Source: Deltaproteobacteria bacterium
GTDB taxonomy: Bacteria > Desulfobacterota > JADFVX01
DNA: 64,000 bases
Assembly (NCBI GenBank): GCA_029860075.1
Contig: JAOUBX010000007.1
Location: forward strand, 35,355-99,354
Direction: 5' to 3'
Both the position numbers and the translations under genes were made by a program. Under the pieces are notes generated by a model. The model searched no databases. It saw only the letters and a program-made list of their open reading frames with translations, and was not told the DNA's origin. This document shows positions 10,621-62,569 of this stretch, in pieces (the stretch's first letter is position 1; each line of letters begins with the position of its first letter).

Positions 10621-10822
10621 TCTGTGAAGATCAGTGTCGGAGAAACATCTTCAATGTTTTCAAACCTGTTGATCCTGTCAAAAGAAAAAAGATTTAAGGC
10701 TTGTTTTTAGACGGGATTAACGGGATTGACGGGATTGACGGGATTGACGGGATAAGGTCAAAGTCGTAGTGAGAATATTAGACACAGATTATTTATGACT
10801 GGCTTATGATTTTTACTGAAGG
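10621..10822. repeat. About 200-bp nested-palindromic (MITE-like) repeat, copy A, with 5 tandem 9-bp units (acgggattr)
   Basis: The left arm (cctgttgatcctgtcaaaag) is the reverse complement of the right-arm units (gacgggattgacggg). The outer arms are gatcagtgtc / gacacagatt. Long stretches are near-identical to copy B. Confidence 0.8.
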
Positions 10823-10903
10823 TATTACCTTGGTGTACTATAAGCTCTATCCCTTTTAATCATTCCTGTTGGCATCTCTCCCCATCTCTGGTATAAAAAG
10901 TGT

Positions 10904-11790: not shown

Positions 11791-11980
11791 TCTGTAAAAA
11801 TCAGTGTCCGGAAAATATTTTAGAATTTGAAATCCGGTAAATCCTGTTGATCCCGTCAAAAGAAAAAGATTTAAAAGCTTGTTTTTAGACGGGATTGACG
11901 GGATTGACGGGATAATGTCAAAGTCGTAGTGAGAATATTAAACACAGATTATTTATGATTGGTTTATGATTTTTACTGAA
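11791..11980. repeat. MITE-like repeat, copy B (3 tandem 9-bp units)
   Basis: Aligns by eye with copy A over most of its length (caaaagaaaaagatttaa..gcttgtttttagacgggattgacggg...gtcaaagtcgtagtgagaatatta.acacagattatttatga). A partial right end also occurs at 11724-11765. Confidence 0.8.
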
Positions 11981-12013
11981 AAATGGTAGGTTTTTATCTT
12001 TAAAATCAGACTT

Positions 12014-12140
12014 TATCAGTGAAGATCAGTGTCCAGAAAAATGTTTTAGGTCTTGAAATCCAGTGAATCCTGTAAATCCCGTCAAAAGAAAAAAAGGTTT
12101 AAAGCTTGTTTTACACGGGACAGGCGGGATAGCCGGGGTA
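12014..12140. repeat. MITE-like repeat, copy C (degenerate right arm)
   Basis: atcagtgaagatcagtgtcc...gaatcctgtaaatcccgtcaaaagaaaaaaaggtttaaagcttgtttt, followed by diverged gggacaggcggga units. Confidence 0.65.
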
Positions 12141-12788
12141 AAATCAGTATCAAAAAAAGATTTCCCTCCAGACTCTCCTCGGAGTCCTCTGCGCTAAATA
12201 AACTCCCACAGCTTCTATCCCTTCTTCCGTTCCCAAACTCTTGCAAAACAAATCCCCTTTGTTTTGAACAATATTGCTCTGTCTGACTATGAAAAAACTG
12301 AGCGTTCAAAAAAAGATATAGTTTGTATTTTATAATAATATCAGTGTGTTGCGGCTTGTAGCGTTACAATAGTGCTGTATGTGGCGCATTTATTTTATTG
12401 ACAGATAATGAGAAAATATGTACTTCTATCATCGTTTATTTTTTCCTGTATTTTTTATATTCTTGGAAGTTTAAGGCCATTTTAATGGAAAATATAGGAA
12501 TACGACGAAATACAGAACTTTCCGGCCAGATATACCTCACTTGATCAAAAAAGATTGATAGCGTTTTGCGGGATCAACGGCATGGAACAACAAATAGGGG
12601 AATATCGATAATGGTTAAGTTATTAAAAAATGGGAAAGTTGTCGGGACGGCAGTTGGTCGGAAAGTATTGCCGCAGTAAGCAATGCGCTTAAAAAACAGT
12701 GCAGGCCCAGTTGGGTGTTTTGGCATGATGTGTGCCGGGCAAGTATGAATTTTTCATAATGAATATTAAAAAATGGGAGGGAAAACGT

Positions 12789-17100: not shown

Positions 17101-17220
17101 TTTGAATTAAAATCCGGTTGATCCAGTCAAAAGAAAAAGATTTATTCTTAGACGGGATTAACAGGATTGACAGGATAAGAGCAAAAGAAATAATCGGACA
17201 CAGATTTATTATGATTATTT
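17101..17220. repeat. MITE-like repeat, copy D
   Basis: aatccggttgatccagtcaaaagaaaaagattt...ttagacgggattaacaggattgacaggataag...ggacacagatttattatga. Confidence 0.7.
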
Positions 17221-17259
17221 AAAAAAGACAAGTTCTTACATATTTACAATCATATTTTG

Positions 17260-17386
17260 ATCAGTGAATATCAGTGTCGGAAAAAAGTTTTAAGGGTTTT
17301 AAAAATCCGGTAGATCCTGTAAATCCTGTCAAAAGAAAAAAATTAAAAGACTGTTTTTAGATGGGATCAACGGGATTTACAGGATA
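17260..17386. repeat. MITE-like repeat, copy E
   Basis: gatcagtgaatatcagtgtcgg...ccggtagatcctgtaaatcctgtcaaaagaaaaaaatt...ttagatgggatcaacgggatttacaggata. Confidence 0.7.
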
Positions 17387-17527
17387 AAAAAGCTAAATTT
17401 CTTTCTTCGTGAAACCTTCGTGCCCTTGGTGGATAAAGATTGATGCAGAACTTGACTTAATTCCTTCTGGATTCCCGATCTGGCCGGGAATGACAGATTA
17501 TAAACAATCAGTGTCTAATTATTTTTT

Positions 17528-44312: not shown

Positions 44313-44617
44313 TTAAGAATAGTTCCCCCGGAATCAGCAGCGATTCCCGGCCTGTCCCTATGGAAATCTGCAACAATTATTTCTGCCTGGAATGACGCAC
44401 AGTCATGGTTGTTTCGACTCGGAGGTTTCCGGCCGGAGATCTCTGTCCGGGAGTTTCTGAGAGGTACCGGGTTAAGACCTCTCACTATATTCGAGACAAG
44501 AATTTCTCCTCGCACCCCAAGGGCGCTTGTCACTTTGTTCAGGCGCATTTCAAATGACAGGTCAGCGCAAGTTCCCAAGGGGACATGACTGAGAGATCTC
44601 CCGAATTTATTCAGGGC

Positions 44618-45259
44618 TTAACAGCAGCCCCGAACTTGCGGATGGCAGCAGCAGTCATGATGGTGATAGTCATGGCTGTCATTACAATGGCAGGAACAGC
44701 CGCCATGCGGCCCGCAGTCATCATGATAATTAGGGTGGCAGGTACCATGATGGGAACCATGATGAGGATCACAATGGGAGCCATGATGAGGGTCATCATG
44801 ATGCCGGCTGCATGCATGCTGTCCTGATAAACCACCCATGAGAGAAAGTCCGCCTGCGAGGCCTGTATTGATAAAGTCGATTCCAAGGCGTACCATTCCA
44901 CCGACTTTATTGAGCAATTCCTGGTTTCCTTCATGCGCTTTGGGCGAAAGCGGCATTCCTGTGGGCGCTGAAGCATGATGGTGATGGTAACTTCCGTAGG
45001 GTTGTCCATGAATATGATATTGAGGCGGGAATGCCTGGATCTTCCCGGCATTAGCTGTCCACTGCTTACTTCTGTATGCCTCTGCCTGTCGCTGAAATTC
45101 TTCGTAGGCTTCTTTTGCGCTTGTCCCCTTCTCACCCAATGTTTCCCTTGAGACCACGTTTTCAGTGGCTGCGCTCAAATTTTCTCTGAGAGAATTAATG
45201 TTATCTGCCTTTACTTCTTTTATTGTTTTTGCTGATTTCTTTCGTGGTCTTGTAGCCAT
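44618..45259 (-). CDS. Orphan protein with Gly/Leu-rich segment and extreme His/Cys-rich C-terminal tail (operon gene 11)
   Basis: SD AAGGAG. 213 aa. The last 66 aa contain about 19 His and 12 Cys by hand count (..HHDDPHHGSHCDPHHGSHHGTCHP...HDCCCHPQVRGCC). No signal peptide. Confidence 0.65.
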   Translation of the reverse strand: MATRPRKKSAKTIKEVKADNINSLRENLSAATENVVSRETLGEKGTSAKEAYEEFQRQAEAYRSKQWTANAGKIQAFPPQYHIHGQPYGSYHHHHASAPTGMPLSPKAHEGNQELLNKVGGMVRLGIDFINTGLAGGLSLMGGLSGQHACSRHHDDPHHGSHCDPHHGSHHGTCHPNYHDDCGPHGGCSCHCNDSHDYHHHDCCCHPQVRGCC

Positions 45260-45293
45260 AAATGGTCTCCTTTATAAGAATGTGTGATTATCC

Positions 45294-45917
45294 TTAACAG
45301 CTGAATACCTCACACCACCTGACGCGGGCAATAGTGTTAATGGTGAGGGCAATTAACCTGGCGCCCGGATTTACCGTAATAATATCTTCTTTAATGTGAT
45401 AGCCGGGCTGGATAGGGTCTTTCACCCAGACTAATGTGTGGTCTTCACTATCTTCCACTGCAACTGCAACGAGGGACTTTGCCGTATTGTCATTTTTCTC
45501 CAGCATATACTCAACTGACAGGTGAACGCAGCAACCACCGCCGATTATGCTCTTTTCAGCGCCTATGCCGGCGCTGGATAATAAAAGTGGTTTAAAAAGT
45601 AAGCCCGCTGTTTCAAAACCGTTTAATTTCTCGGAAATAAGTTTCACTCCCTCTTTAGGGTCCCGTATAATCAGGGGTTCTACCAAAAGTTCCTTTGATT
45701 CCTTGCGGCAATGTTTGTGTCCGCAGCAGCATTTGCTCACAGGGTGGCAACAGGAATGACAAAAATGATGATTATGGCCATGATGATCATGCCCATGATA
45801 ATGAGGGCGGTGATAGCTGTATGCAGGGGAATTTGCCCGACGACGTACATTCCGGGTTGCCACATCAGCCGGGTTTCCCCCGGCATCAGCAGAGTTTGTA
45901 TTAATAGTTAAAGCCAT
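45294..45917 (-). CDS. Orphan protein: His/Cys-rich N-terminal region plus about 100-aa beta-rich domain ending RWCEVFSC (operon gene 10)
   Basis: SD GGAGG. The N-terminal region reads HRPHYHGHDHHGHNHHFCHSCCHPVSKCCCGHKHC. The C-terminal domain is paralogous to gene 9. Confidence 0.65.
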   Translation of the reverse strand: MALTINTNSADAGGNPADVATRNVRRRANSPAYSYHRPHYHGHDHHGHNHHFCHSCCHPVSKCCCGHKHCRKESKELLVEPLIIRDPKEGVKLISEKLNGFETAGLLFKPLLLSSAGIGAEKSIIGGGCCVHLSVEYMLEKNDNTAKSLVAVAVEDSEDHTLVWVKDPIQPGYHIKEDIITVNPGARLIALTINTIARVRWCEVFSC

Positions 45918-45956
45918 GTTTTGTCCTCCAAATAAAAAAATAATAAAAAGTTTAAA

Positions 45957-46412
45957 TTAACAAATCAGGTCTTCACACCACCTTAGCCTGGCCCTGCATT
46001 TTTTTACCGTTAAACTGATTACCGAACCCGGCGGGAGTTGAAGGGGTAATTTTTTCACATAATATCCGGCAGGCGCCGATGTAATAGATAGAACCACTAC
46101 AGAGTCAACTTTTACTTCTACTAATAAGGGGTCCGAACCGTCAGAGAGGTATTCCAGATTGACGGTAACGTCATTTTCTCCACCAATGTATGTTTCGGCC
46201 TCTCCTATCCCGGCAAAGCTGTCGGCAAATATTTCTTGAGGGTACTTTATAAGTATTGCTGATGGACAGCAACACTCATGGGGCGGATGATGGCAGCCGG
46301 GACAAAATTCCGCTGAAGGTACAGCATAATAATGGGGCGCCGGAGTCTGATAGTTATACCCGCAGCACGGGCAGCAAGACGCATGATGCGCAGGGTAAGT
46401 ACAGTTATGCAT
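45957..46412 (-). CDS. Paralogue of gene 10: Cys/His-rich N-terminus plus beta-rich domain ending RWCEDLIC (operon gene 9)
   Basis: AGGAGG lies 9 nt upstream of the ATG at 46412. The N-terminus reads HHASCCPCCG...CPGCHHPPHECCCP. The shared positions AGIG..IGG..V.LEY...PG...LT...AR.RWCE...C align by eye with gene 10. Confidence 0.65.
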   Translation of the reverse strand: MHNCTYPAHHASCCPCCGYNYQTPAPHYYAVPSAEFCPGCHHPPHECCCPSAILIKYPQEIFADSFAGIGEAETYIGGENDVTVNLEYLSDGSDPLLVEVKVDSVVVLSITSAPAGYYVKKLPLQLPPGSVISLTVKKCRARLRWCEDLIC

Positions 46413-46430
46413 TTTCACCACCTCCTGAAA

Positions 46431-46613
46431 TTAGGGTTGTTGTTCCTTGGTTGCTTCCTTGATGCTTTCCAGGGTATCATCGACTATACTGAAACTGCTT
46501 TTTACTACCGTATTTAAAACTTCTGTAACACCCTCGGTAAGCTTGCTCGATATAATTTGATTTGCCGTTTCATTGATTACCTTGTTTAATGGTCCCAGCA
46601 GACTTATTGCCAT
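46431..46613 (-). CDS. 60-aa hypothetical helical protein (operon gene 8)
   Basis: SD GGGAGGTGA. Amphipathic sequence with no Cys or His. No recognisable family. Confidence 0.5.
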   Translation of the reverse strand: MAISLLGPLNKVINETANQIISSKLTEGVTEVLNTVVKSSFSIVDDTLESIKEATKEQQP

Positions 46614-46665
46614 AACATCACCTCCCTGTTGGATTAAATTTTTTTCTATTCCTGTTGTTGTGCTT

Positions 46666-48126
46666 TTATTGGATAAAAAGATGGCGGGCTGATATACCCT
46701 TTTTCATTGAATGAATTCCAAGATCTGAAGCTTTTGAGATTACATCCATTCCCCAATTGAGATTTTTTGTGGGGTTTTCCATCATTCTGCTAATAATCCT
46801 CGTTAAGTCTATTAATGTCCTTAATCCACTTTTAAGAACCCCGCCGGACCCATTATTTTGGGACTGATTCAACAGTTTAATCCAGAATGCCGGATTGACA
46901 GGAATGGCGTTCACTATGGTTAAGGGTGAGAAGCATGCGCTTGCCGGTGTCACGCCTGTAAATATTCCGCCACACATGTCTCTGAATTCCTTACTGTTTC
47001 TTGTCATCTCACAAATCATTTTCAGTGCAAGAAGGTAGGCTTCTCTTAAATTTGGATTTCTTGCGATACTTAATATGAGACTCCCTGTGAGCCTGTCCAG
47101 TCCTGATATGTCATCCTGGATTTCATTAAAGCTATTTAGGTTTTCAGCGGAAAAGTCATTTCTTTCAAGAGCATTCATGGCGATAAAAGCCGCCAGGTGA
47201 CCACCTTCAAGGGCAATATGAATACCGCCGCCATTTATGGGGTCCGTCATATTTGCCGCATCGCCTATCAAAAGGACCCTTTCTGCGACGGTTTTTTCCA
47301 ATTTAGGAAAACAGGCCCTGCCGCCGCCCAGTTTTTCCGGTTTGGCGTCTTTTTTTAAGCGATGAGACAGATTTTTTGCGACAAAATCGTCAAAAACCTC
47401 TTTAAGATGAGGTTTCATGGGGAAATTGGCGTCATAAACATAGCCGACACCCACATTTGCACGTCCACTGTCGTCGGCAAAAACCCAGCCATAACCGGGG
47501 AAAAAATCTTTATCGAAGTATATCTGGACTTTCGATTTATCTATGATCATGTCGGGGTAATATGCCCTTATGGAAGCGGCAACGGACTCCCCCTTAATAC
47601 TGTTGCCGATCTCCCTGGAAACGACCGAGTTTACACCGTCAGAACCAATAACCATTTTGGCTTCATAGGTGACAGGTGCATTATCTTCAATGGCTTCTAT
47701 GCATATGCGATCCTTTTTGGCAGCAATTTTCTTTACATGGCAGCCTTCTTTAAACGTTACTCCTGATGAAACGGCATTTTTTACCAATATATGGTCAAGC
47801 GTTCTCCGTTCAAGTTGTACGCCGAAACCGGGGAACTTTTCCCCTTCCGGAAAACCGCTGGAAATAACATATTCGCCGTTGACATAAAGGTCACCTGAAT
47901 CGGTATAGCCTTTACATTCATCGAGTACCTCATTAATGCATCCCAGCATATCGATCCAGTAAACGGCTTTAGGGGCCAGAAAGTCACCACAAACCTTATC
48001 TCTGGGGAACCTGGACTTATCGAGTAATAAGACATTTACCCCTTCCCTTGCAAGAAAGGTAGAGGTGCTGCTTCCACCGGGACCGGCACCGACGACTATG
48101 ACGTCATAAAAATTGTTGTTTGCCAT
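46666..48126 (-). CDS. FAD-dependent oxidoreductase, geranylgeranyl-reductase family (operon gene 7)
   Basis: The N-terminal YDVIVVGAGPGGSSTSTFLAREGVNVLLLDKSRFPRDKVCGDFL and the later LIGDAANMTDPINGGGI are typical of the GGR/FixC-type family. At 486 aa it has a C-terminal extension. Confidence 0.7.
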   Translation of the reverse strand: MANNNFYDVIVVGAGPGGSSTSTFLAREGVNVLLLDKSRFPRDKVCGDFLAPKAVYWIDMLGCINEVLDECKGYTDSGDLYVNGEYVISSGFPEGEKFPGFGVQLERRTLDHILVKNAVSSGVTFKEGCHVKKIAAKKDRICIEAIEDNAPVTYEAKMVIGSDGVNSVVSREIGNSIKGESVAASIRAYYPDMIIDKSKVQIYFDKDFFPGYGWVFADDSGRANVGVGYVYDANFPMKPHLKEVFDDFVAKNLSHRLKKDAKPEKLGGGRACFPKLEKTVAERVLLIGDAANMTDPINGGGIHIALEGGHLAAFIAMNALERNDFSAENLNSFNEIQDDISGLDRLTGSLILSIARNPNLREAYLLALKMICEMTRNSKEFRDMCGGIFTGVTPASACFSPLTIVNAIPVNPAFWIKLLNQSQNNGSGGVLKSGLRTLIDLTRIISRMMENPTKNLNWGMDVISKASDLGIHSMKKGISARHLFIQ

Positions 48127-48161
48127 TAGCTGCTTCCTGTTTGATCAGGATATATTTTACT

Positions 48162-48863
48162 CTAAACAGGGGAACTCACAATGATTACCAGGGGTATTTG
48201 ATACTCATCTTCCCCTGAAACGGTGACGAGGCCCCTGTATGCATCAGGCGGTGCATTTTCAGGTATCTTCCCTGAAAATACGAGTTTCTCAAAATCCATC
48301 GGTGCAATGGATATTTTTGATGGATTAATTTTGAAGGACTTTGCATTTATCTGGAAATTAGTTTTATCTCCCACAAAATCAGCGGCAGCCGCAAATTGCA
48401 GTTGTTTTGATCCCTGATGCGTTTCATTATCTATTGAGAAGGAAATCGTTACTTCACCACCGGCAAAGGCAGGCATCCTGTTGCTGACAAGGGGCTGGCT
48501 GTTTTCCGGTTCCTGCCGATGGTTTGGCGGTGCTTCAGGAGGCGCTGTTTGTTCCTGGCTCTGGCCTGTAAATTTTCTGATTAAATCTTCATAGTTTACT
48601 TTTGGGCCTGATGAATCTTCCTGCGTCTGGGTTTTCAATATGTCTGACGCCTTGTCGGAGGCAACGCCTCCAAGTTTGCTAACCAGGTTAACGCCCAGTT
48701 CAAGCCCTGTTTCTACAAGGTCGATCCCTCTGTCAAAAATTACGCCTATTTTGTCAATATTGTCCTTCGATGAATGGTTGCTGGATTGAGACGCTCCTTC
48801 GTCGCCGCCTTTAGAAGAATTTCCGTTCTTTTTTTGAGACTTTTCCGATTCGGTTTTAACCAC
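48162..48863 (-). CDS. Orphan protein: low-complexity N-terminus, Gly/Leu motif, Ig-like C-terminal domain (operon gene 6)
   Basis: GTG start after AGAGGA. GIDLVETGLELGVNLVSKLGG resembles segments in genes 5 and 11. The C-terminal roughly 100 aa look like a CARDB/NEW3-type beta-sandwich (..PDAYRGLVTVSGEDEYQIPLVIIV). Confidence 0.6.
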   Translation of the reverse strand: MVKTESEKSQKKNGNSSKGGDEGASQSSNHSSKDNIDKIGVIFDRGIDLVETGLELGVNLVSKLGGVASDKASDILKTQTQEDSSGPKVNYEDLIRKFTGQSQEQTAPPEAPPNHRQEPENSQPLVSNRMPAFAGGEVTISFSIDNETHQGSKQLQFAAAADFVGDKTNFQINAKSFKINPSKISIAPMDFEKLVFSGKIPENAPPDAYRGLVTVSGEDEYQIPLVIIVSSPV

Positions 48864-48964
48864 TTTATCCTCTTTATGCTTTATTTTTACGGGTACTTTG
48901 GGGTATGTACTATGGCATTTCTTCCCCTCTATCCCGAAAATCTATCTTTTTATACTGCCGCTAT

Positions 48965-49279
48965 CTAACAGCAGCAGGAACAGCCGCATCGTTCATGATG
49001 AGGAGGATAGCAGTCGACTGTATAGCAGTGCTGATCACAGCAATGACTGCTGCACCCATGATGACCGTGATGACCGGAGTGATGGTAAGAATGAGACCCG
49101 CCACACCTCGGATCACCCCAGATAGCGCTGTCCACTATATTTTTTACCAAAGAAGACCCACCGTAAATAAAAGACGATGCCAGGCTTGTCAAACCGCCTG
49201 CAATTCCTGCCAGCCCACCTGTTTGTACCGGATAAGGCGAATGGCATGGATGATGACCATGGTAACCATGATAACTCAT
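48965..49279 (-). CDS. 104-aa His/Cys-rich protein with central Gly/Leu segment (operon gene 5)
   Basis: SD GGGGAGGG. There is a 4-nt overlap with gene 4. The sequence runs MSYHGYHGHHPCH...GGLAGIAGGLTSL...HSYHHSGHHGHHGCSSHCCDQHC...CGCSCCC, with about 16 His and 12 Cys by hand count. Confidence 0.65.
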   Translation of the reverse strand: MSYHGYHGHHPCHSPYPVQTGGLAGIAGGLTSLASSFIYGGSSLVKNIVDSAIWGDPRCGGSHSYHHSGHHGHHGCSSHCCDQHCYTVDCYPPHHERCGCSCCC

Positions 49280-49884
49280 TTTGTTCCCTCCCCATGAATT
49301 GTTAAAGCGACCCTGCTTGCATTTCTTGCAAAAGATGAGACTTCACCTGAAGCCATTGATGCCTCTCTGCATTTTGAAGGAATAGCAGGATTTCCTCCTG
49401 TTGCTTCTATGGCATAACTGCGGTTATGCCTTATTTCCTGTTCTTTCCTGTATTTGTCCCGTGGAATCATATGGGTGCTGCCTTTTAACAGTATTCTGAA
49501 TAGTTCCAGACCCAGAAATTTTCCGCTTACCGTATAATTAGAGGGTACGTGAAAGTCCTGGTACGTTCCAACGGAGATTGGCGGCATTCTTCGTACATTC
49601 ATATCAAGCGGCGGAAGTTGCCTTAAAGCCACATTCATGGGGGGAAGGTTGGTCACCTGAAATTTATCGACTTTGATTGGGTCGATATTTCGGACCTGGT
49701 TGACATGAAAGGAATCGATATTGATAGGATCTATGTGATTGATTTCCTTTACGTGATGGGCAACAGGGTCAATATTGCGGACTTCTTTAACATGGAGGTC
49801 TACAGGGTCAATGCCTTTAACCTCCCTTATTTTCAGGTGTACACTTTCGCTATCACTGTCATTTTGTAAATAAACATTACCCAT
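49276..49884 (-). CDS. Orphan repeat protein with about 7 tandem 10-16-aa IDP(V/I)/LPP units (operon gene 4)
   Basis: SD AGAGGGA. Repeats run LKIREVKGIDPVD / LHVKEVRNIDPVA / HHVKEINHIDPIN / IDSFHVNQVRNIDPIK / VDKFQVTNLPPMN / VALRQLPPLD / MNVRRMPPIS. Confidence 0.6.
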   Translation of the reverse strand: MGNVYLQNDSDSESVHLKIREVKGIDPVDLHVKEVRNIDPVAHHVKEINHIDPINIDSFHVNQVRNIDPIKVDKFQVTNLPPMNVALRQLPPLDMNVRRMPPISVGTYQDFHVPSNYTVSGKFLGLELFRILLKGSTHMIPRDKYRKEQEIRHNRSYAIEATGGNPAIPSKCREASMASGEVSSFARNASRVALTIHGEGTK

Positions 49885-49962: not shown

Positions 49963-50682
49963 TTATGCCGGCCACTTATAATTTGCTAAAATTATCTTCG
50001 CTTCATCGCCGGCAGAGGTCCCGTTTAAAGAAACTTCAACAGTAACTACTGTTGTTGCTTCGCTTATGCTGTTTGGTGCGCGGTAAAAACCGCCGTTATC
50101 AATACTTCCCACTACAGGGCTTCTTGTCCAGGTGATATTCGATGATGTGGAATTACTGATAATAGTCCGGAATTGCTGGACCTTATTGCTATTATCTATA
50201 TAGTTATTCTTATGTCCTGTACGGCAATATAAGTGCACGACCTTCGGGAAAATTTCGATAACCGGTTCGGCTTCAGGTTCAGGACCCACACCTACAATGT
50301 TGACGATGGCCGTTGCTTTCCTGGTGGGATCATCAATTGATGTGGCAACAACGATATCCGTCGTATAATTGCCATAATCAGTATCCGCATCATAATCAGG
50401 CGCTATATAAAGACCTGATGAATTGATACTGCCTTCCCCCGGTTCTCCTTTTTCATTAAATACTTCCCACCTGACTCTGTTTGTGGGGGCATTGAATATT
50501 GCCGAATCAAACTGTATCCGCGTATTTACAGGATCAACGTAGCGTTCATTTTTGAAGTAAACTTCTGCATTTTCAGGCCATATCTCGATTTCTATCTGAT
50601 GCTCGCAAATGATGTGATGATGCCTTACATGGGGTAAGCATCTAACCTGATGGTTTCTATGTCTATGCTTATTTAAATACAT
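49963..50682 (-). CDS. Orphan protein: His-rich N-terminus plus two tandem Ig-like repeats (operon gene 3)
   Basis: The N-terminus reads MYLNKHRHRNHQVRCLPHVRHHHIICEH. It is followed by two roughly 95-aa repeats, each starting IEI(W/F)P and containing (W)...G.I...G.Y.AP. No obvious SD. Confidence 0.55.
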   Translation of the reverse strand: MYLNKHRHRNHQVRCLPHVRHHHIICEHQIEIEIWPENAEVYFKNERYVDPVNTRIQFDSAIFNAPTNRVRWEVFNEKGEPGEGSINSSGLYIAPDYDADTDYGNYTTDIVVATSIDDPTRKATAIVNIVGVGPEPEAEPVIEIFPKVVHLYCRTGHKNNYIDNSNKVQQFRTIISNSTSSNITWTRSPVVGSIDNGGFYRAPNSISEATTVVTVEVSLNGTSAGDEAKIILANYKWPA

Positions 50683-50712: not shown

Positions 50713-51132
50713 TTACTCGTCACAGTCGATGAGGCCGAGTTCTATTGACGGCTTTGCTGAAACCTTGCCATTTAATTTGCCTTCCGCCTCTATTTCGGAA
50801 GAGCACTTCATTTGCCCATCCATTTCCCCGCTTATCTCATCTGTTTTGACTGTTCCGCTTAATCTGAAGGAAGCTCTCTTTACTTTCAGATCAAAGGGGC
50901 TGATTCTTGCCTTAAAAGCCCCTACCGATGCAATCAATACGGGCGCGCGTTTTTTTCTGAAAGGGACAGTCATCTTAATGGGGATTTCATCTATAGCAAT
51001 GTTTATTTCACCGACAGTCATGTCGCCGCGGCCGGAAGCAGTGAGGGAGGCTTTGCACTTGAGCGGATCAAGGCGGGTTTTCATTTTGAAAGAGGGGTTG
51101 CTTTTTAGTATTCCTTTAGCTTTAAAATTCAT
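50713..51132 (-). CDS. Basic beta-rich orphan protein (operon gene 2)
   Basis: SD GAGGAG. The start lies 2 nt after the gene 1 stop. 139 aa, ends LIDCDE. No recognisable family. Confidence 0.55.
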   Translation of the reverse strand: MNFKAKGILKSNPSFKMKTRLDPLKCKASLTASGRGDMTVGEINIAIDEIPIKMTVPFRKKRAPVLIASVGAFKARISPFDLKVKRASFRLSGTVKTDEISGEMDGQMKCSSEIEAEGKLNGKVSAKPSIELGLIDCDE

Positions 51133-51134: not shown

Positions 51135-51338
51135 CTACTTCTCCTCACAATCAGAAATTTCACCTTCTTCCCCTTCGGGATAAACACGATCTGCAAGATC
51201 GCCGCACATATCATCGAGGGTGACATTTAAATTTTCGTAGCCTGCCAGGGCTTCATTGAGTTCATTGCAGTTGTCACCTGAAACCTCGAATGAAACGAGC
51301 GGCCCCAGTCTGACTTTAAGTACGATTCTGGACGACAT
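51135..51338 (-). CDS. 67-aa acidic orphan protein (operon gene 1)
   Basis: SD AGAGGGGA. Ends EGEEGEISDCEEK. It is the first gene after the divergent intergenic region. Confidence 0.5.
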   Translation of the reverse strand: MSSRIVLKVRLGPLVSFEVSGDNCNELNEALAGYENLNVTLDDMCGDLADRVYPEGEEGEISDCEEK

Positions 51339-51401
51339 ATAAAGTTCCCCTCTAGTCGATGAAATAATAAAAAAACAAAGTTCTTTCGTAAAATAAGATC
51401 A

Positions 51402-51429
51402 ACTTATATAATTAAAGCAAAATATAAGT
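51402..51429. promoter_or_regulatory. Inverted repeat ACTTATAT-N12-ATATAAGT in the divergent intergenic region (candidate operator)
   Basis: Read directly from the AT-rich 222-bp spacer between the two divergent operons. Confidence 0.3.
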
Positions 51430-51560
51430 CAAGTTATTTTTGAACCAAATGTCAAGGGGCGCAGACTCCTAATGGAATCTGTATAGAAAGTTTACTCCAT
51501 GAAATGGGGGTTGGCAAAAAAAGTTTTTGACCTGAGGAACGAAAAAAATAAAAGCAAGCT

Positions 51561-53309
51561 ATGGTCCAAATTAACGATGTGGATTCCAATAAGATGACCT
51601 TACATTGTCCGGAAAATTGTGCAACTTTAGATAGAGACAGTTATTCTTATTACAACAGTAAGAGAGATCCTCACCCTCCTTCACAGGAAATAGAGATAGT
51701 CAAAACCATATTTCTTAGAGAATACGGGAAAAAGGATCCTCCTTCGGGCAGAATCAGAAGTGGTACCTTTGATGATTTTATGTCTTCTCTGGCAAGTCTG
51801 AAAGCAAAGCATGTAGACACAATCATTCTGCTTCCCCTTCATCCCCTTGGCAAGGCCCTGTGGGGCGCTGTGGCCAGTCCCTATGAACCGATGGATTATT
51901 TTTCAATAGAGCCCTCTCTTGTAAAACATAACTGGGGAGCAGGCACGGCGCGGCTTAAGAGTGAATACAAGCGCTTTAAAAAGAATCATCTCCCCGGAGA
52001 AATGGAGGAATTCAGGCTCTTTAAAAAAAATGTAAGAGTTCTGGAATATGCAAAGTACAATGCAGCAAAACTTATTAGCCGGGAAAAAAACAGGGCATTG
52101 AATGATTTTACTGATTATAAAGATGAGCCTCATTACAAACTGCTTATGGAGGAAACGCTCTTTGAGCAGTTTGTGGCAAGGAAGAAATTCCTTGGTTTTA
52201 TTGAACATGCCCACTGGCTGGGATTGAAGATTATCATGGATATTCCGGGATATTTTGGTACAGACAGTATTGCCGATCTCTTTTATGAAAATTATATCCG
52301 TAAAAATAAAGACGGCACTTATTACCAGCCCGGTTTCGATCAATGGGGGCATGGATGGTATACGCTCAGGCAAATGGAGGTAAATAACTCCAAAGCGCTT
52401 CATTATTTATGTTCCATCTACAGGTATTGGGTTGATGAATTCAAGGTGGACGGCTTCAGGATCGACGCCATACTGACTCAGCCCGATCTTTATGTAAAAG
52501 CTATTCGGCAAGCTGTACCCCATACCTTTCTCCTGGGAGAAACGATAGGAACGTTTAAAGGTGATATTGAAAGGAAGTATATTGATGAGCTTAAGCTCGA
52601 TTCAATCTATAATCCTGAATGGATATGGACAGGTGATATAAAGAAATATCTTGTAAAAGCGCACAAAAGACCTTCCGGCAGGCGATTGTTTCATATGAGG
52701 GATACTCATGACGAAGGGAGGCTCAAAAAGGGAGACCCTTTTTCCATACCTAGAAAGAAGTACCTCTCCCTCCTGGCAATGGCACTCCTGGGACTGCCGG
52801 GGAAAGATATTATCGGTTTTCTCGATGGAAACTTTGATTTGCTGGAAGGGACTCCAGAGCTTCACGAGCTTTATCTGAAAGAGTTTTATGTTGCTGATCA
52901 AAGCAGTATCTGCTTTTCCGATGGGACGGAACTTGGCTCATCAGAGTATATTAAGCGGCTCATATATCTTAGAAAAAAACTTGATCCCCTGAGAAAGAGT
53001 GGTAATATTGTCTTTCTTGAACAATGGAGCAAGCAGATCTCTTCCTATGTGAGAGAAGGGGAAAAGCTTGACGTCATTGTTATAAGCAATGTGGGAGATG
53101 TGAATTTCAGCGGTTCCGTTAAGATCCCGGTAAGGGCCGGTTTTTTTATCGATGAAAATAGGGACATTTGCAAAGATCTCATATCTGGTAAAAGAATAGG
53201 AATTCCTTGCTCCACAGGCAAAGGTATTATATTAACGCTCGATATCGGCCAGTCAGTGGCTTTCTCATTGAAGAAAGGCGATTGCTCTCTTTTGAGAAAG
53301 CAGATTTGA
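51561..53309 (+). CDS. Divergent GH13 (alpha-amylase superfamily)-like protein, cytoplasmic
   Basis: Matches to GH13 conserved regions: region II VDGFRIDAI, region III FLLGETIG, region IV-like MRDTHDE. The region I-like IIMDIPG lacks the usual His. No signal peptide and no clear SD. Confidence 0.55.
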   Translation: MVQINDVDSNKMTLHCPENCATLDRDSYSYYNSKRDPHPPSQEIEIVKTIFLREYGKKDPPSGRIRSGTFDDFMSSLASLKAKHVDTIILLPLHPLGKALWGAVASPYEPMDYFSIEPSLVKHNWGAGTARLKSEYKRFKKNHLPGEMEEFRLFKKNVRVLEYAKYNAAKLISREKNRALNDFTDYKDEPHYKLLMEETLFEQFVARKKFLGFIEHAHWLGLKIIMDIPGYFGTDSIADLFYENYIRKNKDGTYYQPGFDQWGHGWYTLRQMEVNNSKALHYLCSIYRYWVDEFKVDGFRIDAILTQPDLYVKAIRQAVPHTFLLGETIGTFKGDIERKYIDELKLDSIYNPEWIWTGDIKKYLVKAHKRPSGRRLFHMRDTHDEGRLKKGDPFSIPRKKYLSLLAMALLGLPGKDIIGFLDGNFDLLEGTPELHELYLKEFYVADQSSICFSDGTELGSSEYIKRLIYLRKKLDPLRKSGNIVFLEQWSKQISSYVREGEKLDVIVISNVGDVNFSGSVKIPVRAGFFIDENRDICKDLISGKRIGIPCSTGKGIILTLDIGQSVAFSLKKGDCSLLRKQI

Positions 53310-53355: not shown

Positions 53356-54288
53356 ATGATTGATATTGATGATTTTATAAAGAATGACAAAGGGCAGCAG
53401 GAAATCGATCATTGCCTGAAGAGGCTTCGTGATAAAGCTGATGAAGTTTTACGGCCTCTTGCCACAAGCTATTATCCGGCCATGATAGCCCATGATCATG
53501 CCAGTGAATTCAACAAAATGCGTGAGCTCAGCACCAAAATGATGCTTGTGGGGCAGGCATGTGCAGAGATTGCCGGATATGAATTTAATGATAAGCTCAT
53601 TATGTTAAGTGCGCTTTTCGGCGGTTGCTGCTTTCTGGGTGATAGCTTTATCGATGATTATGACGATGAAGAAACACTGGATTATATAAACAGGCTGGAG
53701 CGGCTCCTTACAAAAGGGTGGTTTGAAATAAGTGATGACCGGGAAAAACTCTTTTATGTTATCGTGACAAGGCTTTTTTCTGAATGTGATGTTTTTGAAG
53801 AGAAAACACGGCAGGCCATTTTCGGACAGTTTCTGGCCCAGAAAAGGGATGCTTTATGGAGGCTGGACCATACAGAACTTATGTCCTTATCTCATGATGA
53901 GAAAATCGACGCCCTTCTCCAGTGCGCCAATGACCGGGGTGGATATGTGACTCTCGTACTTTCACTTGTCCTTACTGAGGAGCTTTCTCTGCATTATCAG
54001 CATATTCTCTATCTGGCCGGTAAGCTTTTTATGCATATCGATGACCACGGCGATCACCATCAGGATAAATACAACAAAAGATTTACCTATATGAACAGTA
54101 TCGATAATCCGGCTGATAAACTGGAAAAACTTTTCAATAATATTGTTTCAAAGATCAAGTCGGACTTGCCAGAAAATGGCGGACGTGATATTTTAACAAA
54201 CTTTTTGACACGCTATTATCACACACGCTTAAAAAAACATATTTTGGAGCAAAACAGGGGAAGCAGCAGGTGGGTAATTTATGAATGA
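53356..54288 (+). CDS. All-alpha protein with two DDxxD motifs (isoprenoid synthase / ComQ-like fold candidate)
   Basis: FLGDSFIDDYDDEE at about residue 95 and MHIDDHGDHHQD at about residue 228. The spacing of about 130 aa resembles the FARM/SARM spacing of trans-isoprenyl diphosphate synthases. Confidence 0.4.
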   Translation: MIDIDDFIKNDKGQQEIDHCLKRLRDKADEVLRPLATSYYPAMIAHDHASEFNKMRELSTKMMLVGQACAEIAGYEFNDKLIMLSALFGGCCFLGDSFIDDYDDEETLDYINRLERLLTKGWFEISDDREKLFYVIVTRLFSECDVFEEKTRQAIFGQFLAQKRDALWRLDHTELMSLSHDEKIDALLQCANDRGGYVTLVLSLVLTEELSLHYQHILYLAGKLFMHIDDHGDHHQDKYNKRFTYMNSIDNPADKLEKLFNNIVSKIKSDLPENGGRDILTNFLTRYYHTRLKKHILEQNRGSSRWVIYE

Positions 54289-57577: not shown

Positions 57578-57660
57578 TTTTTGCCGTACTTTTTCATCTC
57601 GCGCAGAGGCGCAGAGAAAATTAATCACAGAAGGGTGGGGAAATCACGGAAATGTTTTTT

Positions 57661-57746
57661 GACAGGATTAACAGGATTAACAGGATTTAAGGGATGAAAA
57701 GGATTCAACGATTTTAAACTTGCAACCCGCAACCTGTAACCCGTAA
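57661..57746. repeat. Short periodic repeats: 9-bp (gacaggatta)x3 then 7-bp (caaccyg/taacccg)x3
   Basis: gacaggattaacaggattaacaggattt, then gcaacccgcaacctgtaacccgtaac. The 9-bp units belong to the same family as those at 10.7, 11.9, 17.1-17.4 and 62.8 kb. Confidence 0.75.
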
Positions 57747-58909: not shown

Positions 58910-59371
58910 TGGTTTCTACAAATTCTAAGGTTAAGCGTTATAAAACAAGCGAGACAATATCAATAACCTGATATCTCTCCTGGCCGGCATTAAAATACTT
59001 GGGATAGAGTCAACAAAAGAGCTTTTTACCTTCTAAAAATATAAAAATTCCACCCCAAAACCAAAGTTACCATCTATTTTAAGGAGCGCAAATTTTTTAT
59101 TAATAATCAGGATCGGCAGGTATCGAAAAAATATTTATAAAAACTTGCATGTGGAAAAACAGATGCTAGAGTTAATCTAGGGGTGGGGATCCCTTTCTTC
59201 TTTGTTTTGTCATAAAAACACCACACTTCTTTAATAAGAGAGAACGTACAGTCACTATCCGGACAATTTTAATATCCGCAAGAGAATCATCATTATTGAA
59301 TATTATCATAATAATTTAAACCAAACTGTCAGTCTTTGAGAAAAGTAACTTTATCAAGAAAGGACGTAGAA

Positions 59372-62300
59372 ATGGCTGCTATCAATAATAGGATAAATTT
59401 TTTAAAAGTATCAGCGCTTATCTTGTTTACGGGTCTCTTTGCTTTACTTGCCACAGGGGCAGCAGACGCTGCTGAAGTTTTCAGAACCAAGTTTAAGGCA
59501 GGTTCAGCCTATCTGATCGTTGAGATTCTTGATGATGACCTGGCTCATTTTGAACTCTCAGCTATAGGCGATGGCCCATCAACGAATGACTCACTTTATA
59601 CGTCGCCAATGGTCCTAAAGACTGATTACAAAGGAGCTGCAACTGTATCTCAAAACAATAACATTATAGAAACCAGTGAGATACGCCTTGAAATTGACAA
59701 AAGCAATCTTTGCATCAAGCTGATTGATAAAAGTAAGGGTAATTCTCGTCTAACGACGGTTTGTCCCGTTGATCTATCGATGGGATTGAAAGGGATAAAT
59801 ATTGAACCGGGACAAATACAGAATATCTATGGCCTGGGTCAGGAATTTAAGCGCTTAGGCTCATCAGATGGCGACTGGATTAAATTGGGAGTACGTCAGG
59901 GAATGAGTCGAAAGAGCAATCAACAGGTGGGTTTTGAACAAGCTCCCCCGGGGCAACAATTTTTTGTAGATGCAGGAAACGGTTTCCAGGGCTTCCAACA
60001 AGCGGCTGTGGGTAACGTGCAAATTCCAGTGTATTATGCTGTCGGTGCGAATAATCTCAACTATGCTCTATTTATGGATAATATCTACTGGCAGAGGTGG
60101 GATTTTAAAAAAAATTGGTGGCAGGCCCGGATGTATGGAGATCAACTGCGTTTTTACTTTATGACCGGTCAGGATTTACCTGATCTGAGGTCGGACTTTA
60201 TGGAATTGACGGGCACGCCGCCAATTCCTTCACGGAAATCATTCGGTATGTGGGTATCCGAATTTGGCTATGACAATTGGGATCAGGTCGATATTCTTAA
60301 AAAAACTTTGAGAGATGATAAATTCCCATTAGATGGTTTTGTCCTTGATTTGAATTGGTTTGGCGGCATAAGTCCGAAAACCAACATGGGGCGCCTTAAT
60401 TGGGATCAGGATCAGGATGCCTTAGTGAAGAATAACGGGTACTTTTTTCCAAAACCAAGTGAAAAAATTAAAAAATACGCTGAAGATAATATTCGTATCG
60501 CCGCAATTGAAGAATCCTATTTAGCCAGGACAGAGCCTCTTCTTGATACCTTTAAAAATATACCAAAGAACTTTATGGCCTACCAGCGAAACGGCAACAG
60601 CTGTAACTCAACCATTGAGGAACCCGTATTTATTAATGCAGCGGACTTCTGGGGCGAAGGCTGGATGTTTGACTGGTCTGAGCCGGCACTCGGCCAATGG
60701 ATTCACAATAACCGTCGCTTCCCGGAACTGGTAAAAAGAGGAATCCATACTCATTGGACTGATCTGGGAGAACCCGAGCGTTTTGAGCCATCTGCCTGCT
60801 ACGAGGGGGTAGAGACTACTGTTTCCGGCAAAAAGAACGAACATACGGATATCCATAACATATACAATCTGCTCTGGAATAAATCTATTTGGGACGGCTA
60901 CGTTGAAAAGCAGGGGCAGGCGGATGAACTGGGCATAATCAATCCGCGCCCTTTGATTCTGACCCGTTCAGGGGCCGCTGGAACTCAGCGATACGGCGCA
61001 GCAATGTGGTCCGGGGATATTGCCTCTAGCCTGGAGTCTCTTGCCACGCATTCAAACGTACAGATGCATATGTCCTTTTCCGGCATTGACTATTACGGTG
61101 CAGATATTGGAGGTTTTCGCCGCGAAGTACTTCCAGGCAACAAAAAAGAGGGCCCCTTTAACACAAGTTATCAAGATGAGATGTATACTCAGTGGTTTGC
61201 CAACGGAAGCTGGTTCGACATCCCCGTCCGTCCTCACACCGATAACGAATTCGGGGAGAACCGAAACAGCTGTAAGAATAATTTCGCCAACAGAAAGCCA
61301 CCCTGCTACGAAACAGCGCCAAATCTTGTAGGCAAGCCTGATAGTAATTTAGCCAATATCCGTCAACGGTACGAATTGATTCCCTACTATTACTCCCTTG
61401 CTTATCGAGCCTATCTTCAGGGAGAACCTGTAATACCACCCCCTGTATTTTACTATCAGAACGACTCTAACTTGAGAGAGATGGGGCATGAAAAGATGAT
61501 TGGCAGAGATATTCTGGTCGGAATTGTCGCTAAACATGGTGAGTATGAGCGCAATGTTTATCTGCCGAAGGGTAGATGGGTAAATTATCATTCTAATGAG
61601 TGGGTTGACAGTTCGGGAGAGGAGATAAAGAATGCACCTCTTTATCGGGAAGGAATTTTGCGGTTGCCGGCCTTTGTACGTGCCGGAGCTATCCTTCCCC
61701 AGATGTTTGTTGATGAAAACACTAAGGATGCCTTTGGCCATCGGCTTGACGGAACTGCAGCTCATAATGAATTGATTGTTCGCGTCTATACTGATGAAAG
61801 GCCATCGACTTTCACATTGTACGAGGATGATGGATTAACCCTGAATTATAAGGAAAGCGGGCGGCCAGGCTATCACTACAGAACAACTGTCCTCAAGCAG
61901 CAAAAGAATAATGACACTGTAACCGTTACTATCGACCCGGCTGTTAACAAGAACGGTGACGACGAGGTGGCAAAGTCCTTTAATGGAGCTGTCAGCAGCC
62001 GGGCAAATATTGTTAAATTGATTGTCAACAATGCCGAGGCAAAAGCAGTCAAAATTAACAATACGCCACTGACTAAATATACATCTCAAGAAAATTTCGA
62101 TACCGCTGAAAGTGGTTGGTACAATGCTGCCAACAACCTGATTGTGGCAAAATCGGGCAAAATGGATGTCAACAGTACCATTAAAGTTTTTTCTTTTCAG
62201 CTAAGATCTGTTCCGGCAAAAACATCGGTCAACTTTGTCTGTGACAATGGTTTTACAACTCCCGGCGAGAGTATCTATGTTACAGGCAGTATTGAAGCCT

Positions 62301-62569
62301 TAGGTAATTGGAACCCGGATAAAGCGGTTAAGCTTGATCCAAATATCTACTACGAATACATCCTACGAGCGGATAAAAAGCTTCCTGGTCCTACGAAACC
62401 AGTCTGGACAAGTGTAATTAATAACCTGCCGCCTAATACTACCTTCGAGTGGAAATGTATACGGCGACATGAAAACGATGCGAACCAGGTTCAGTGGCAG
62501 CCGGGGGACAACAATAAGAAAACTACTGTTACTCATGGCTACGCGGGAAAGAGTTACGGTACCTTTTAA
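59372..62569 (+). CDS. Secreted GH31-family glycosidase/transglycosylase with C-terminal CBM20 starch-binding domain
   Basis: Signal peptide ...ALLATGAADA. GH31-like regions are present (DGFVLDLNWFGG, HWTDLGEPE, AAMWSGDIAS). The C-terminal VNFVCDNGFTTPGESIYVTGSIEALGNWNP...W...F.WKCIRR is CBM20-like. Confidence 0.7.
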   Translation: MAAINNRINFLKVSALILFTGLFALLATGAADAAEVFRTKFKAGSAYLIVEILDDDLAHFELSAIGDGPSTNDSLYTSPMVLKTDYKGAATVSQNNNIIETSEIRLEIDKSNLCIKLIDKSKGNSRLTTVCPVDLSMGLKGINIEPGQIQNIYGLGQEFKRLGSSDGDWIKLGVRQGMSRKSNQQVGFEQAPPGQQFFVDAGNGFQGFQQAAVGNVQIPVYYAVGANNLNYALFMDNIYWQRWDFKKNWWQARMYGDQLRFYFMTGQDLPDLRSDFMELTGTPPIPSRKSFGMWVSEFGYDNWDQVDILKKTLRDDKFPLDGFVLDLNWFGGISPKTNMGRLNWDQDQDALVKNNGYFFPKPSEKIKKYAEDNIRIAAIEESYLARTEPLLDTFKNIPKNFMAYQRNGNSCNSTIEEPVFINAADFWGEGWMFDWSEPALGQWIHNNRRFPELVKRGIHTHWTDLGEPERFEPSACYEGVETTVSGKKNEHTDIHNIYNLLWNKSIWDGYVEKQGQADELGIINPRPLILTRSGAAGTQRYGAAMWSGDIASSLESLATHSNVQMHMSFSGIDYYGADIGGFRREVLPGNKKEGPFNTSYQDEMYTQWFANGSWFDIPVRPHTDNEFGENRNSCKNNFANRKPPCYETAPNLVGKPDSNLANIRQRYELIPYYYSLAYRAYLQGEPVIPPPVFYYQNDSNLREMGHEKMIGRDILVGIVAKHGEYERNVYLPKGRWVNYHSNEWVDSSGEEIKNAPLYREGILRLPAFVRAGAILPQMFVDENTKDAFGHRLDGTAAHNELIVRVYTDERPSTFTLYEDDGLTLNYKESGRPGYHYRTTVLKQQKNNDTVTVTIDPAVNKNGDDEVAKSFNGAVSSRANIVKLIVNNAEAKAVKINNTPLTKYTSQENFDTAESGWYNAANNLIVAKSGKMDVNSTIKVFSFQLRSVPAKTSVNFVCDNGFTTPGESIYVTGSIEALGNWNPDKAVKLDPNIYYEYILRADKKLPGPTKPVWTSVINNLPPNTTFEWKCIRRHENDANQVQWQPGDNNKKTTVTHGYAGKSYGTF

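Follow-up and report, generated by a model that had tools for sequence, protein, structure and literature searches.

Organisation and conservation of the locus

The stretch of DNA analysed here, which we call the window, comprises 64,000 nucleotides (nt) of contig JAOUBX010000007.1 (positions 35,355 to 99,354) from the Deltaproteobacteria bacterium assembly GCA_029860075.1. It carries a minus-strand operon of 11 genes, g1-g11 (51338-44618), with intergenic gaps of between -4 nt (an overlap) and 101 nt and with ribosome-binding sites at most genes, and the last seven of these genes occupy the range 44618-49279. Within this range an earlier reading of the DNA, the original prediction, had picked out three proteins as sharing a hydrophobic segment rich in Gly and Leu, and two of them as ending in tails dense in His and Cys. 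Its genes 5, 6 and 11 are g5, g6 and g11 of the operon, and the peptides that it quoted from them occur exactly as written and where it had placed them. We find that the segment is a homologous module in g6 and g11, that g5 is a probable relative of g11, and that His/Cys tracts extend to further proteins of the operon, which may together form an assembly that binds metal.

The operon genes are protein-coding and under purifying selection, and are no artefacts of low complexity. A syntenic locus from other sediment metagenomes (L001/L002) retains g1-g6 and g8-g11 at 53-90% identity of amino acids (aa). The flanks are also common to the window and this locus, with mfd, two surA-like genes, pdxA and a phosphoglucomutase gene on one side, and an amylase-like gene, open reading frames (ORFs) of 310 and 197 aa, an HprK-like gene and a gene for an MshE-type ATPase on the other. 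Purifying selection is indicated because the ratio of nonsynonymous to synonymous substitution (Ka/Ks) between the window and L001 lies at 0.04-0.17 in every gene compared, these being the ten conserved in the relative, in estimates for which synonymous sites are near saturation; the whole-gene values are 0.16 for g6, 0.17 for g11 and 0.105 for g5. The region is seamless in Logan contigs from two sediment runs, in which there are no joints and no indels. We note that long ORFs on the plus strand face the tails of g11 and g5 (44585-44827 and 48905-49297), and that their Met/Val/Ile/Thr-rich products mirror the codon bias of the His/Cys tracts. The conservation pattern favours the minus-strand frames, which supports not calling these plus-strand ORFs genes.

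A homologous module in g6 and g11

A module of approximately 33 aa is homologous between g6 and g11. BLASTP with compositional adjustment aligns the two proteins over 31 aa at 39% identity (E = 1e-5), and the Smith-Waterman score of the two segments is 61 versus 22.7 +/- 4.5 for shuffled sequences, with none of 2000 shuffles scoring as high. Profiles built from either family alone each find the other as the best non-self match among 1455 ORFs (E 0.03-0.04), and the profile of full-length g11, with the composition correction of HMMER on, finds two g6 orthologues at E values of 0.0016 and 0.0029. Profile-profile alignment by hhalign gives a score of 29.5 versus 13.6 +/- 2.8 in a block-shuffle null, again unmatched by any of 200 shuffles. 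The proposed similarity therefore survives composition-corrected statistics for g6 and g11; for g5, which neither BLASTP nor HMMER links to the others, it does not.

The module is the most constrained part of g6 and g11, as the middle segment is of g5. Its Ka/Ks is 0.028 in g6, the lowest in that protein, and 0.078 in g11, compared with 0.21 in the g6 linker and 0.25 in the g11 N-terminus; the corresponding value for the g5 middle segment is 0.068. It is nearly invariant over three lineages in both proteins, the invariant positions across three g6 and two g11 lineages being K, G, G-I, G-L, G, L and G, and a third g11 orthologue (P0007) retains LLDKVGEMLRLGLDFINASLAGGLSLMEGVS. The first half follows the pattern K-[IV]-G-x-[IM]-x-x-x-G-I-D-[LF]-[VI] and is the most amphipathic 18-residue window of g6 and of g11 (hydrophobic moment, muH, 0.51-0.56), and the second half is rich in small residues around an invariant G-L-x-x-G. 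This is not the plain hydrophobic Gly/Leu repeat that had been described, as the module in g6 and g11 includes Asp, Glu, Lys and Arg, and no segment of the operon proteins is as hydrophobic as a transmembrane helix. The uncharged, Gly-rich stretch of approximately 30 aa in g5 carries a G21xxxG25xxxG29 zipper.

AlphaFold2 (AF2) models of g6 and g11, built on alignments of three sequences, are of low confidence (predicted local distance difference test, pLDDT, 42 and 46, respectively). They place a helix at residues 32-78 and strands at 129-230 of g6, and helices at 11-36, 41-70 and 106-137 of g11, followed by a disordered tail. That the module is helical in both models is a hint at its structure. 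Hydropathy stays below transmembrane-like values throughout the operon proteins, with a 19-residue Kyte-Doolittle mean of 1.44 at most, and reading of their N-termini by eye found no signal-peptide-like start. Because neither a signal peptide nor a higher hydropathy mean was seen, the operon proteins are likely to be cytoplasmic, and the reduced cytoplasm would be where they reside.

The relationship of g5 to g11

The original prediction placed the same segment in all three proteins, which stands for g6 and g11 as homology but for g5 meets mixed evidence. BLASTP of g5 against g11 and g6 returned nothing relevant, the g5 segment gives Smith-Waterman p values of 0.14 against g11 and 0.63 against g6, and direct comparison of g5 with g6 found nothing. 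Composition-corrected HMMER profiles did not find the link between g5 and g11, and matches arise only when the correction is off. Even tail against tail, the Smith-Waterman comparison of g5 and g11 reaches just p = 0.049. Such results are in keeping with the alternative that g5 came to look like g11 and g6 by convergence on low complexity, Gly-rich and then His/Cys-rich, and that the module is common to g6 and g11 only.

On the other side of the question, hhalign aligns residues 19-100 of g5 colinearly with residues 111-205 of g11, spanning both segment and tail, with a probability of 84-95%. The score of this alignment, 49.7, compares with 21.3 +/- 5.8 when all blocks are shuffled with local composition kept, with 36.0 +/- 4.4 when the segment block alone is shuffled, and with 27.8 +/- 5.6 when the tail block alone is shuffled; in each of these three tests none of 200 shuffles scored as high. 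The order of elements is also the same in the two proteins, namely a His/Tyr/Pro-rich stretch, a Gly-rich helix, GCSxHCxDxH and HHxxCxC. The register differs from that originally proposed, and sets g5 GGLAGIAGGLTSLASSFIY opposite g11 ELLNKVGGMVRLGIDFIN, and g5 GGSSLV opposite g11 GGLSLM, with ...LTSLASSFIY-GGSSLV of g5 aligned to ...VRLGIDFIN(TGLA)GGLSLM of g11. In the tails, HGCSSHCCDQH..HHERCGC of g5 is aligned to GGCSCHCNDSH..HHHDCCC of g11. We therefore regard g5 as a probable, if not proven, short and diverged paralogue of g11, and convergence as a serious but rather unlikely alternative.

Histidine- and cysteine-rich tracts

The tails themselves are as the original prediction had them. 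The last 66 aa of g11 contain exactly the 19 His and 12 Cys counted by hand (47%), and the proposed density of approximately 45% His+Cys is matched by this figure and by the last 50 aa (44%) and last 40 aa (50%) of g5, where the background in long ORFs of the window is 2.0% His and 1.0% Cys. The types of motif described are likewise present: HH occurs nine times, HxH four times, CC and CxC three times each and CCC once in g11, and the respective counts in g5 are five, two, three, three and one. Five proteins of the operon have such tracts: g11 in its tail, g5 in both its tail and its N-terminus, and g3, g9 and g10 in their N-termini. The Cys/His-rich N-termini of g9 and g10 and the His-rich N-terminus of g3, together with the N-terminus of g5, had previously gone unmentioned. 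The end of g11 and the N-terminal tract of g10 have a CC(H)P-x3-4-CC motif in common.

Of all residue classes, Cys is conserved best. Between the window and L001, g10 keeps 11/11 Cys versus 97/180 other residues, the g11 tail 8/12 Cys versus 10/35 other residues, and the g5 tail 9/11 Cys. Seven Cys, four His and two Asp of the g11 tail are invariant in three lineages (C150, H153, H179, D181, H185, C188, C190, H201, D202, C203, C205, C212 and C213), and both g11 orthologues are without a His-rich stretch of 14-17 aa that in the window tail contains a duplicated PHHGSH. A fixed set of potential ligands with an expandable His-rich part is like the pattern of tails that bind several metal ions.

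The remaining genes and the upstream region

The features of the operon are collected in Table 1.

Table 1. Operon genes and their parts, with positions in the window
Feature	Position	Strand	Description
Upstream region	51348-51457	-	Conserved, non-coding; 84% identity to L001 over 112 nt (blastn)
g1	51135-51338	-	67 aa; small acidic protein; first operon gene
g2	50713-51132	-	139 aa; basic; beta-rich, judged from sequence; 90% identity to L001; Ka/Ks 0.037
g3	49963-50682	-	239 aa; His-rich N-terminus (nt 50599-50670); 77% identity to L001
g4	49276-49884	-	202 aa; N-terminal repeats of ~13-16 aa, VKEVRNIDPV type; conserved C-terminal half
g5	48965-49279	-	104 aa; start overlaps g4 stop by 4 nt
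g5 Gly-rich middle segment	49109-49225	-	aa 19-57
g5 His/Cys tail	48968-49108	-	aa 58-104; 11 His and 11 Cys in 47 aa
g6	48162-48863	-	233 aa; no His/Cys tract
g6 shared module and conserved extension	48630-48767	-	aa 33-78: KDNIDKIGVIFDRGIDLVETGLELGVNLVSKLGGVASDKASDILKT
g7	46666-48126	-	486 aa; geranylgeranyl reductase family flavoprotein; C-terminal ~150 aa without assigned family
g8	46431-46613	-	60 aa; small, acidic; predicted amphipathic helix; 77% identity to L001
g9	45957-46421	-	151-154 aa; likely start ATG at 46412
g10	45294-45917	-	207 aa; beta-rich domain ends RVRWCEVFSC
g11	44618-45259	-	213 aa; GGAG ribosome-binding site
g11 shared module	44819-44923	-	aa 113-147: QELLNKVGGMVRLGIDFINTGLAGGLSLMGGLSGQ
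g11 His/Cys tail	44621-44818	-	aa 148-213; 19 His, 12 Cys; end HDCxC(H/Q)PxVxGCC conserved

The three proteins of main concern are modular. From the N-terminus, g5 consists of a His-rich part, the uncharged Gly-rich helix with its zipper, NIVDSAIWGDPR, and a His/Cys tail that ends in CGCSCCC; it is 79% identical to its L001 orthologue by pairwise alignment and 83% by MAFFT. g6 has a polar N-terminus, the shared module, a Pro/Gln-rich linker and a beta-rich C-terminal domain, and its orthologues (P0004 and P0005) are 67% identical. In g11 a helical N-terminus with a conserved AKEAYEEFQRQAEAY is followed by a His/Tyr/Pro-rich stretch, the shared module and the tail; one orthologue (P0002) is 53% identical by BLASTP and 60% by MAFFT, and P0007 is 51% identical by MAFFT.

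Among the other proteins, g2 is the most conserved of the operon and is a candidate scaffold. The region of g3 after its N-terminus, which we read from the sequence as two immunoglobulin (Ig)-like domains, has one weak match to a PHROG Ig-domain family (E = 0.0019). g4 is 80% identical in L001 (6794-7441) and varies in repeat number, L001 having one extra repeat as a 13-aa insertion; its PDB search gave a weak match to a leucine-rich-repeat protein (E = 0.12). BLASTP (E = 3e-10) shows g9 and g10 to be paralogues of each other. In g9 an N-terminal Cys/His tract (nt 46263-46409) precedes a beta-rich domain ending in RLRWCEDLIC, and in g10 the N-terminal His/Cys tract (aa 35-71, nt 45705-45815) includes CCHPVSKCCC. 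g7 matches TIGR02032 (4.4e-59, 200.6 bits versus a cut-off of 158.8) and also Pfam FAD_binding_3 and GGR_cat. In the window it separates g6 from g8, and in a further locus (L087, 748-1689) it comes after g6, but it is absent from L001/L002, where the gap between g6 and g8 is just 90 nt (L001 8541-8631). As such, g7 is an accessory gene.

The conserved region upstream of g1 contains TTGACA/TTGACT boxes and an inverted repeat, TTGAC-N6-(G/T)TCAA, whose arms match fully in L001 but for a single base in the window. A promoter consensus scan gave only weak sites, at 51517-51489 and 51392-51364. The region is likely to be a promoter plus operator, and may be bound by a regulator.

Distribution, host and genomic surroundings

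The operon was found in three to four lineages only, and all sources are sediment or environmental metagenomes. A protein search of 5.8 billion clusters gave one relative of g11 and two of g6. A HMMER profile of the module, run against 1.84 billion representative proteins, gave four hits, namely the g6 cluster, the g11 cluster, the g11 orthologue P0007, which lies on a 526-bp contig without gene context, and P0006, a eukaryotic repeat protein in which only positions 3-15 were matched, 14 times, and which we rejected as spurious. The restriction of the module to g6- and g11-type proteins fits a private interaction module. A protein search with the module alignment gave no candidates, and likewise did not recover the known members. 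For g2, a search of 185,579 species genomes found no relative, and a metagenome scan found only a contig from a Joint Genome Institute (JGI) sample that already holds the L001 lineage; tblastn of g2 and g10 against plasmids found nothing. The best matches of the host alanyl-tRNA synthetase are 51-57% identical to species representatives and are spread over Nitrospinota, Nitrospirota and Desulfobacterota. Judged from such sequences, the host is a deep, poorly represented lineage.

The 310-aa ORF (53356-54288, plus strand; L001 2402-3334) belongs to a divergently transcribed set of neighbours and is 84% identical between lineages. It has DDxx(D/E) motifs at aa 100 and 229, 129 aa apart, a spacing as in trans-prenyl and class I terpene synthases, and matches nothing in Pfam, NCBIfam or PDB. 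Together with g7, this protein hints at isoprenoid chemistry. Between g11 and the phosphoglucomutase gene, L001 (10836-11906) encodes a cupredoxin of the plastocyanin/azurin family, with a hydrophobic N-terminus, and an M50 peptidase. Both are missing from the window, where tblastn found no remnant of them.

Elsewhere in the window (301-3926, 6140-6619, 51561-53309 and 59336-62569) are ATP-citrate-lyase-type genes with Citrate_bind and CoA-ligase domains, a phasin, an amylase/4-alpha-glucanotransferase-like protein and a GH31 protein with a CBM20 starch-binding domain. Just beyond the g11 stop codon, the Logan depth of an intergenic sequence at 44472-44587 is 38-82 in run X1, versus approximately 10 for the operon, with many loose contig ends on both sides, which points to a short element that is multicopy in the metagenome or the genome. 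The window contains it once. A family of intergenic repeats (9199-9242, 10621-10824, 11791-11984, 12016-12148, 17110-17394 and 57652-57695) includes a 109-nt unit and tandem 9-nt GACGGGATT units after TTTTAGAC; at 10.6-17.4 kb, small unannotated ORFs are surrounded by several of its copies.

Comparison with known proteins

Ten of the 11 operon proteins have no Pfam, NCBIfam, PHROG, PADLOC or PDB relative; g7 is the exception, and what else appeared was sub-threshold noise. PDB sequence searches with g2, g4, g10, g11, the 310-aa neighbour, the module profile and a g5 profile gave nothing meaningful, and the match of g2 to Bactofilin PF04519 (E = 0.014, 16.0 bits over 33 residues) lies below the cut-off of 27.9. 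The possibility of a phage, defence or plasmid origin was rejected, with no marker family or signal seen, as was that of secreted or membrane proteins, with no supporting signal.

The nearest parallels to the tails are in metallochaperones. The Cys content seen here, of up to 12 in 66 aa with CCC runs, is presumably above that of most chaperone tails. Further His/Cys-rich or His-rich Ni metallochaperone tails belong to H. pylori HspA, Hpn and CooJ. The tail of E. coli SlyD, in which His, Cys, Asp and Glu abound, can take as many as 7 Ni(II), the His/Cys-rich tail of H. pylori SlyD binds 2.4 Ni or 3.3 Zn, and the His-rich tail of UreE holds most of the Ni of that protein (PMC7055735, PMC3292732). 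Like SlyD and UreE, g11 and g5 have a terminal tract dense in His and Cys (HxH, HH, CC and CxC) on an unrelated part, the tract in the known proteins being disordered and the rest folded or oligomeric; in both cases the tract varies in length between species, and each SlyD tail takes several Ni or Zn (PMC7055735, PMC3292732). The g11 tail, predicted by AF2 at low confidence to be unstructured, has a terminal His/Cys tract of the SlyD/UreE/HspA type. The composition of the g11 and g5 tails matches that of tails shown by experiment to bind Ni or Zn, and we infer that they bind metal as well. Unlike SlyD, UreE and HspA, however, g5 and g11 have no match to an FKBP, UreE or GroES domain in Pfam, NCBIfam or PDB, and here the tracts are borne by five co-operonic proteins, in some of them at the N-terminus. 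No hydrogenase or urease genes were found near the operon.

A second parallel is with the bacterial metallothioneins SmtA/BmtA, which hold a Zn4Cys9His2 cluster. These share with the tracts their Cys and His ligands in CxC and CC, and the seven Cys and four His of g11 would suffice for a small metal-thiolate cluster. They differ in being free domains of approximately 55 aa, where the tracts lie within larger modular proteins, and no Pfam or NCBIfam metallothionein model matched at E up to 0.1.

The module, for its part, resembles the targeting peptides of microcompartments and encapsulins, in which a short conserved amphipathic helix occurs on otherwise unrelated operon proteins with poorly conserved linkers around it. 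The shared helix is similar; but the module is internal rather than terminal, and no bacterial microcompartment shell or encapsulin family was found among the operon proteins.

The resemblance to biomineral-associated proteins, offered in the original prediction as an analogy, does not extend to their defining features: the Gly-Leu dipeptide repeat and the acidic tail of Mms6 (PMC4900750) are both missing, and so is the long GlyZip of calcyanin (PMC8890360). The Gly-Leu repeat of Mms6, which is encoded in a magnetosome-cluster context, has been suggested to lock subunits together and to set the spacing of acidic, iron-binding C-termini (PMC4900750). With Mms6, MamG and MamD, only the principle of an ion-binding tail placed after an assembly motif is shared (PMC4900750). 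The segments here read GLAGGLSLMGGLSG, GLELGVNLVSKLGG and GGLAGIAGGLTSL, with no (GL)n run, a mean hydropathy of at most 1.44 and no membrane span, and the tails are 44-50% His+Cys rather than acid-rich. Pfam scans, which covered all but one plausible ORF of at least 150 aa in the window, found housekeeping families and no magnetosome family, the sole actin-like match being a canonical MreB. The GlyZip of calcyanin, which comes in two or three copies, is an apolar stretch of approximately 50 aa that has some 12 Gly-x3-Gly units and, at its centre, a Gly-Pro; GlyZip/GxxxG motifs serve tight helix packing (PMC8890360). By comparison, g5 has its one G21xxxG25xxxG29 and g6 and g11 the invariant GLxxG, making only one to two units, with charged residues within the module. 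Membership of the magnetosome or calcyanin systems was thus rejected, with no marker family or defining feature found.

Discussion

Our data are best read as a cytoplasmic multiprotein assembly in which subunits joined by the module would display metal-binding His/Cys tracts, a reading that we favour over the others but hold tentatively. The module would form helix-helix contacts, with copies of itself or with a shared partner, and this packing would gather the g6 beta-domain and the tails of g11 and g5 into one complex, for which g2 and the repeat protein g4 are candidate scaffolds. The His/Cys tracts would provide flexible sites whose thiolates and imidazoles coordinate several metal ions, in the manner of the SlyD tail or a metallothionein, and the complex could sequester, buffer or hand over a soft or borderline metal such as Ni, Zn, Cu(I), Co or Cd. 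The original suggestion that the module serves to anchor or to oligomerise the tails is plausible, and fits the constraint on the module, the strongest in each protein, its highest helical amphipathicity in g6 and g11 and its invariant G-L-x-x-G. Helix packing or docking, metal binding and a role in storage or buffering are each proposed here by inference. In a bolder and improbable form of the same idea, the operon would encode an undescribed cytoplasmic, protein-scaffolded metal body, in which g2 and g4 polymerise, g3, g6, g9 and g10 act as adaptors, and g5 and g11 dock through a private GxxxG module, the tracts of five subunits holding a pool of thiophilic metal or nucleating a metal-sulfide phase.

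Several observations weigh against such an assembly. The layout of a segment followed by a tail, on which the original prediction was built, applies to g11 and probably to g5 but is no general rule, since g6 bears the module without a His/Cys tract; the module is thus not specific to tails. The membership of g5 is called into question by the empty BLASTP searches and by HMMER profiles that lose the link to g11 under composition correction. At a pLDDT of 42-46, the helical hairpin and its packing are tentative predictions. The sole metal-related neighbour is the cupredoxin of L001, which is apparently exported and is not in the window, and no Ni enzyme, metal transporter or metal regulator was found among the window ORFs scanned.

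Other functions have been considered for the module and for the tracts. The module could be an in-plane amphipathic anchor that holds g6, g11 and g5 on a membrane or on a lipid or isoprenoid body, with the tails displayed there and no protein-protein interface involved. The amphipathic moment of its first half, the highest in g6 and g11, would suit such a role, as would the uncharged Gly-rich stretch of g5 with its GxxxGxxxG, the presence of g7 within the operon in two of the three lineages where its position is visible, and the conserved 310-aa neighbour with its prenyl-synthase-like motif spacing. No segment reaches transmembrane hydropathy, however, L001/L002 keep the module proteins without g7, the 310-aa protein has no family match, and conservation of the module as strict as Ka/Ks 0.03-0.08 is usual for specific contacts between proteins more than for a helix that binds lipid, so that we regard a lipid anchor as unlikely. 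A similarly low likelihood attaches, in our judgement, to the tracts being defined Fe-S or Zn structural clusters, or redox or cross-linking Cys, in a structural or electron-transfer assembly with g7 as a possible redox partner. The invariance of seven Cys, four His and two Asp of the g11 tail in three lineages, the full retention of Cys in g10, the recurrence of CC(H)P-x3-4-CC and the flavoprotein inside the operon are what such clusters would lead one to expect, but the tracts are His-rich and length-variable, both g11 orthologues lacking 14-17 aa of the tail, this tail is predicted to be disordered, no known Fe-S or zinc-finger family in Pfam or NCBIfam was matched, and g7 is dispensable in one lineage.

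Two further explanations concern what the tails might do or become. Biomineralisation in the manner of Mms6/MamG or calcyanin, in which a Gly-rich self-assembly motif would space tails that nucleate a metal sulfide or similar intracellular mineral, draws on the analogous layout of assembly motif and ion-binding tail (PMC4900750) and on the encoding of several proteins with dense ligand tracts in a single operon. The proteins are without a (Gly-Leu)n run, an acidic tail, a membrane span or a GlyZip of approximately 50 aa (PMC8890360), and magnetosome-type families are absent from the Pfam scans of window ORFs, which makes this explanation very unlikely. Modification of the C-termini (g11 -GCC, g5 -CSCCC and g10 -FSC) may also be envisaged, for example by S-prenylation linked to g7 and the DDxxD protein, or as cores like those of ribosomally synthesised and post-translationally modified peptides (RiPPs). 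In eukaryotes, Rab proteins receive geranylgeranyl groups at a CC or CXC motif of the C-terminus. The terminal GCC of g11 is invariant in three lineages, CSCCC and FSC are kept in two, and isoprenoid-related genes and an HprK-like kinase lie nearby. Set against these points, no prenyltransferase, radical-SAM, YcaO or lanthipeptide enzyme family was detected in Pfam and NCBIfam scans, one lineage without g7 has the same termini, and the proteins are long and multi-domain, unlike RiPP precursors; we give this possibility hardly any credence.

Should the operon indeed encode a module-joined cytoplasmic assembly, metal-binding His/Cys tracts would be distributed among five proteins of a single operon with a private assembly module in common, in contrast to the known examples, in which such tracts are single add-ons to a chaperone. 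The pairing of a compact natural assembly module with a metal tail would then be useful for protein engineering, and the operon would represent dedicated intracellular metal handling or storage in a deep, uncultured lineage of sediment bacteria.

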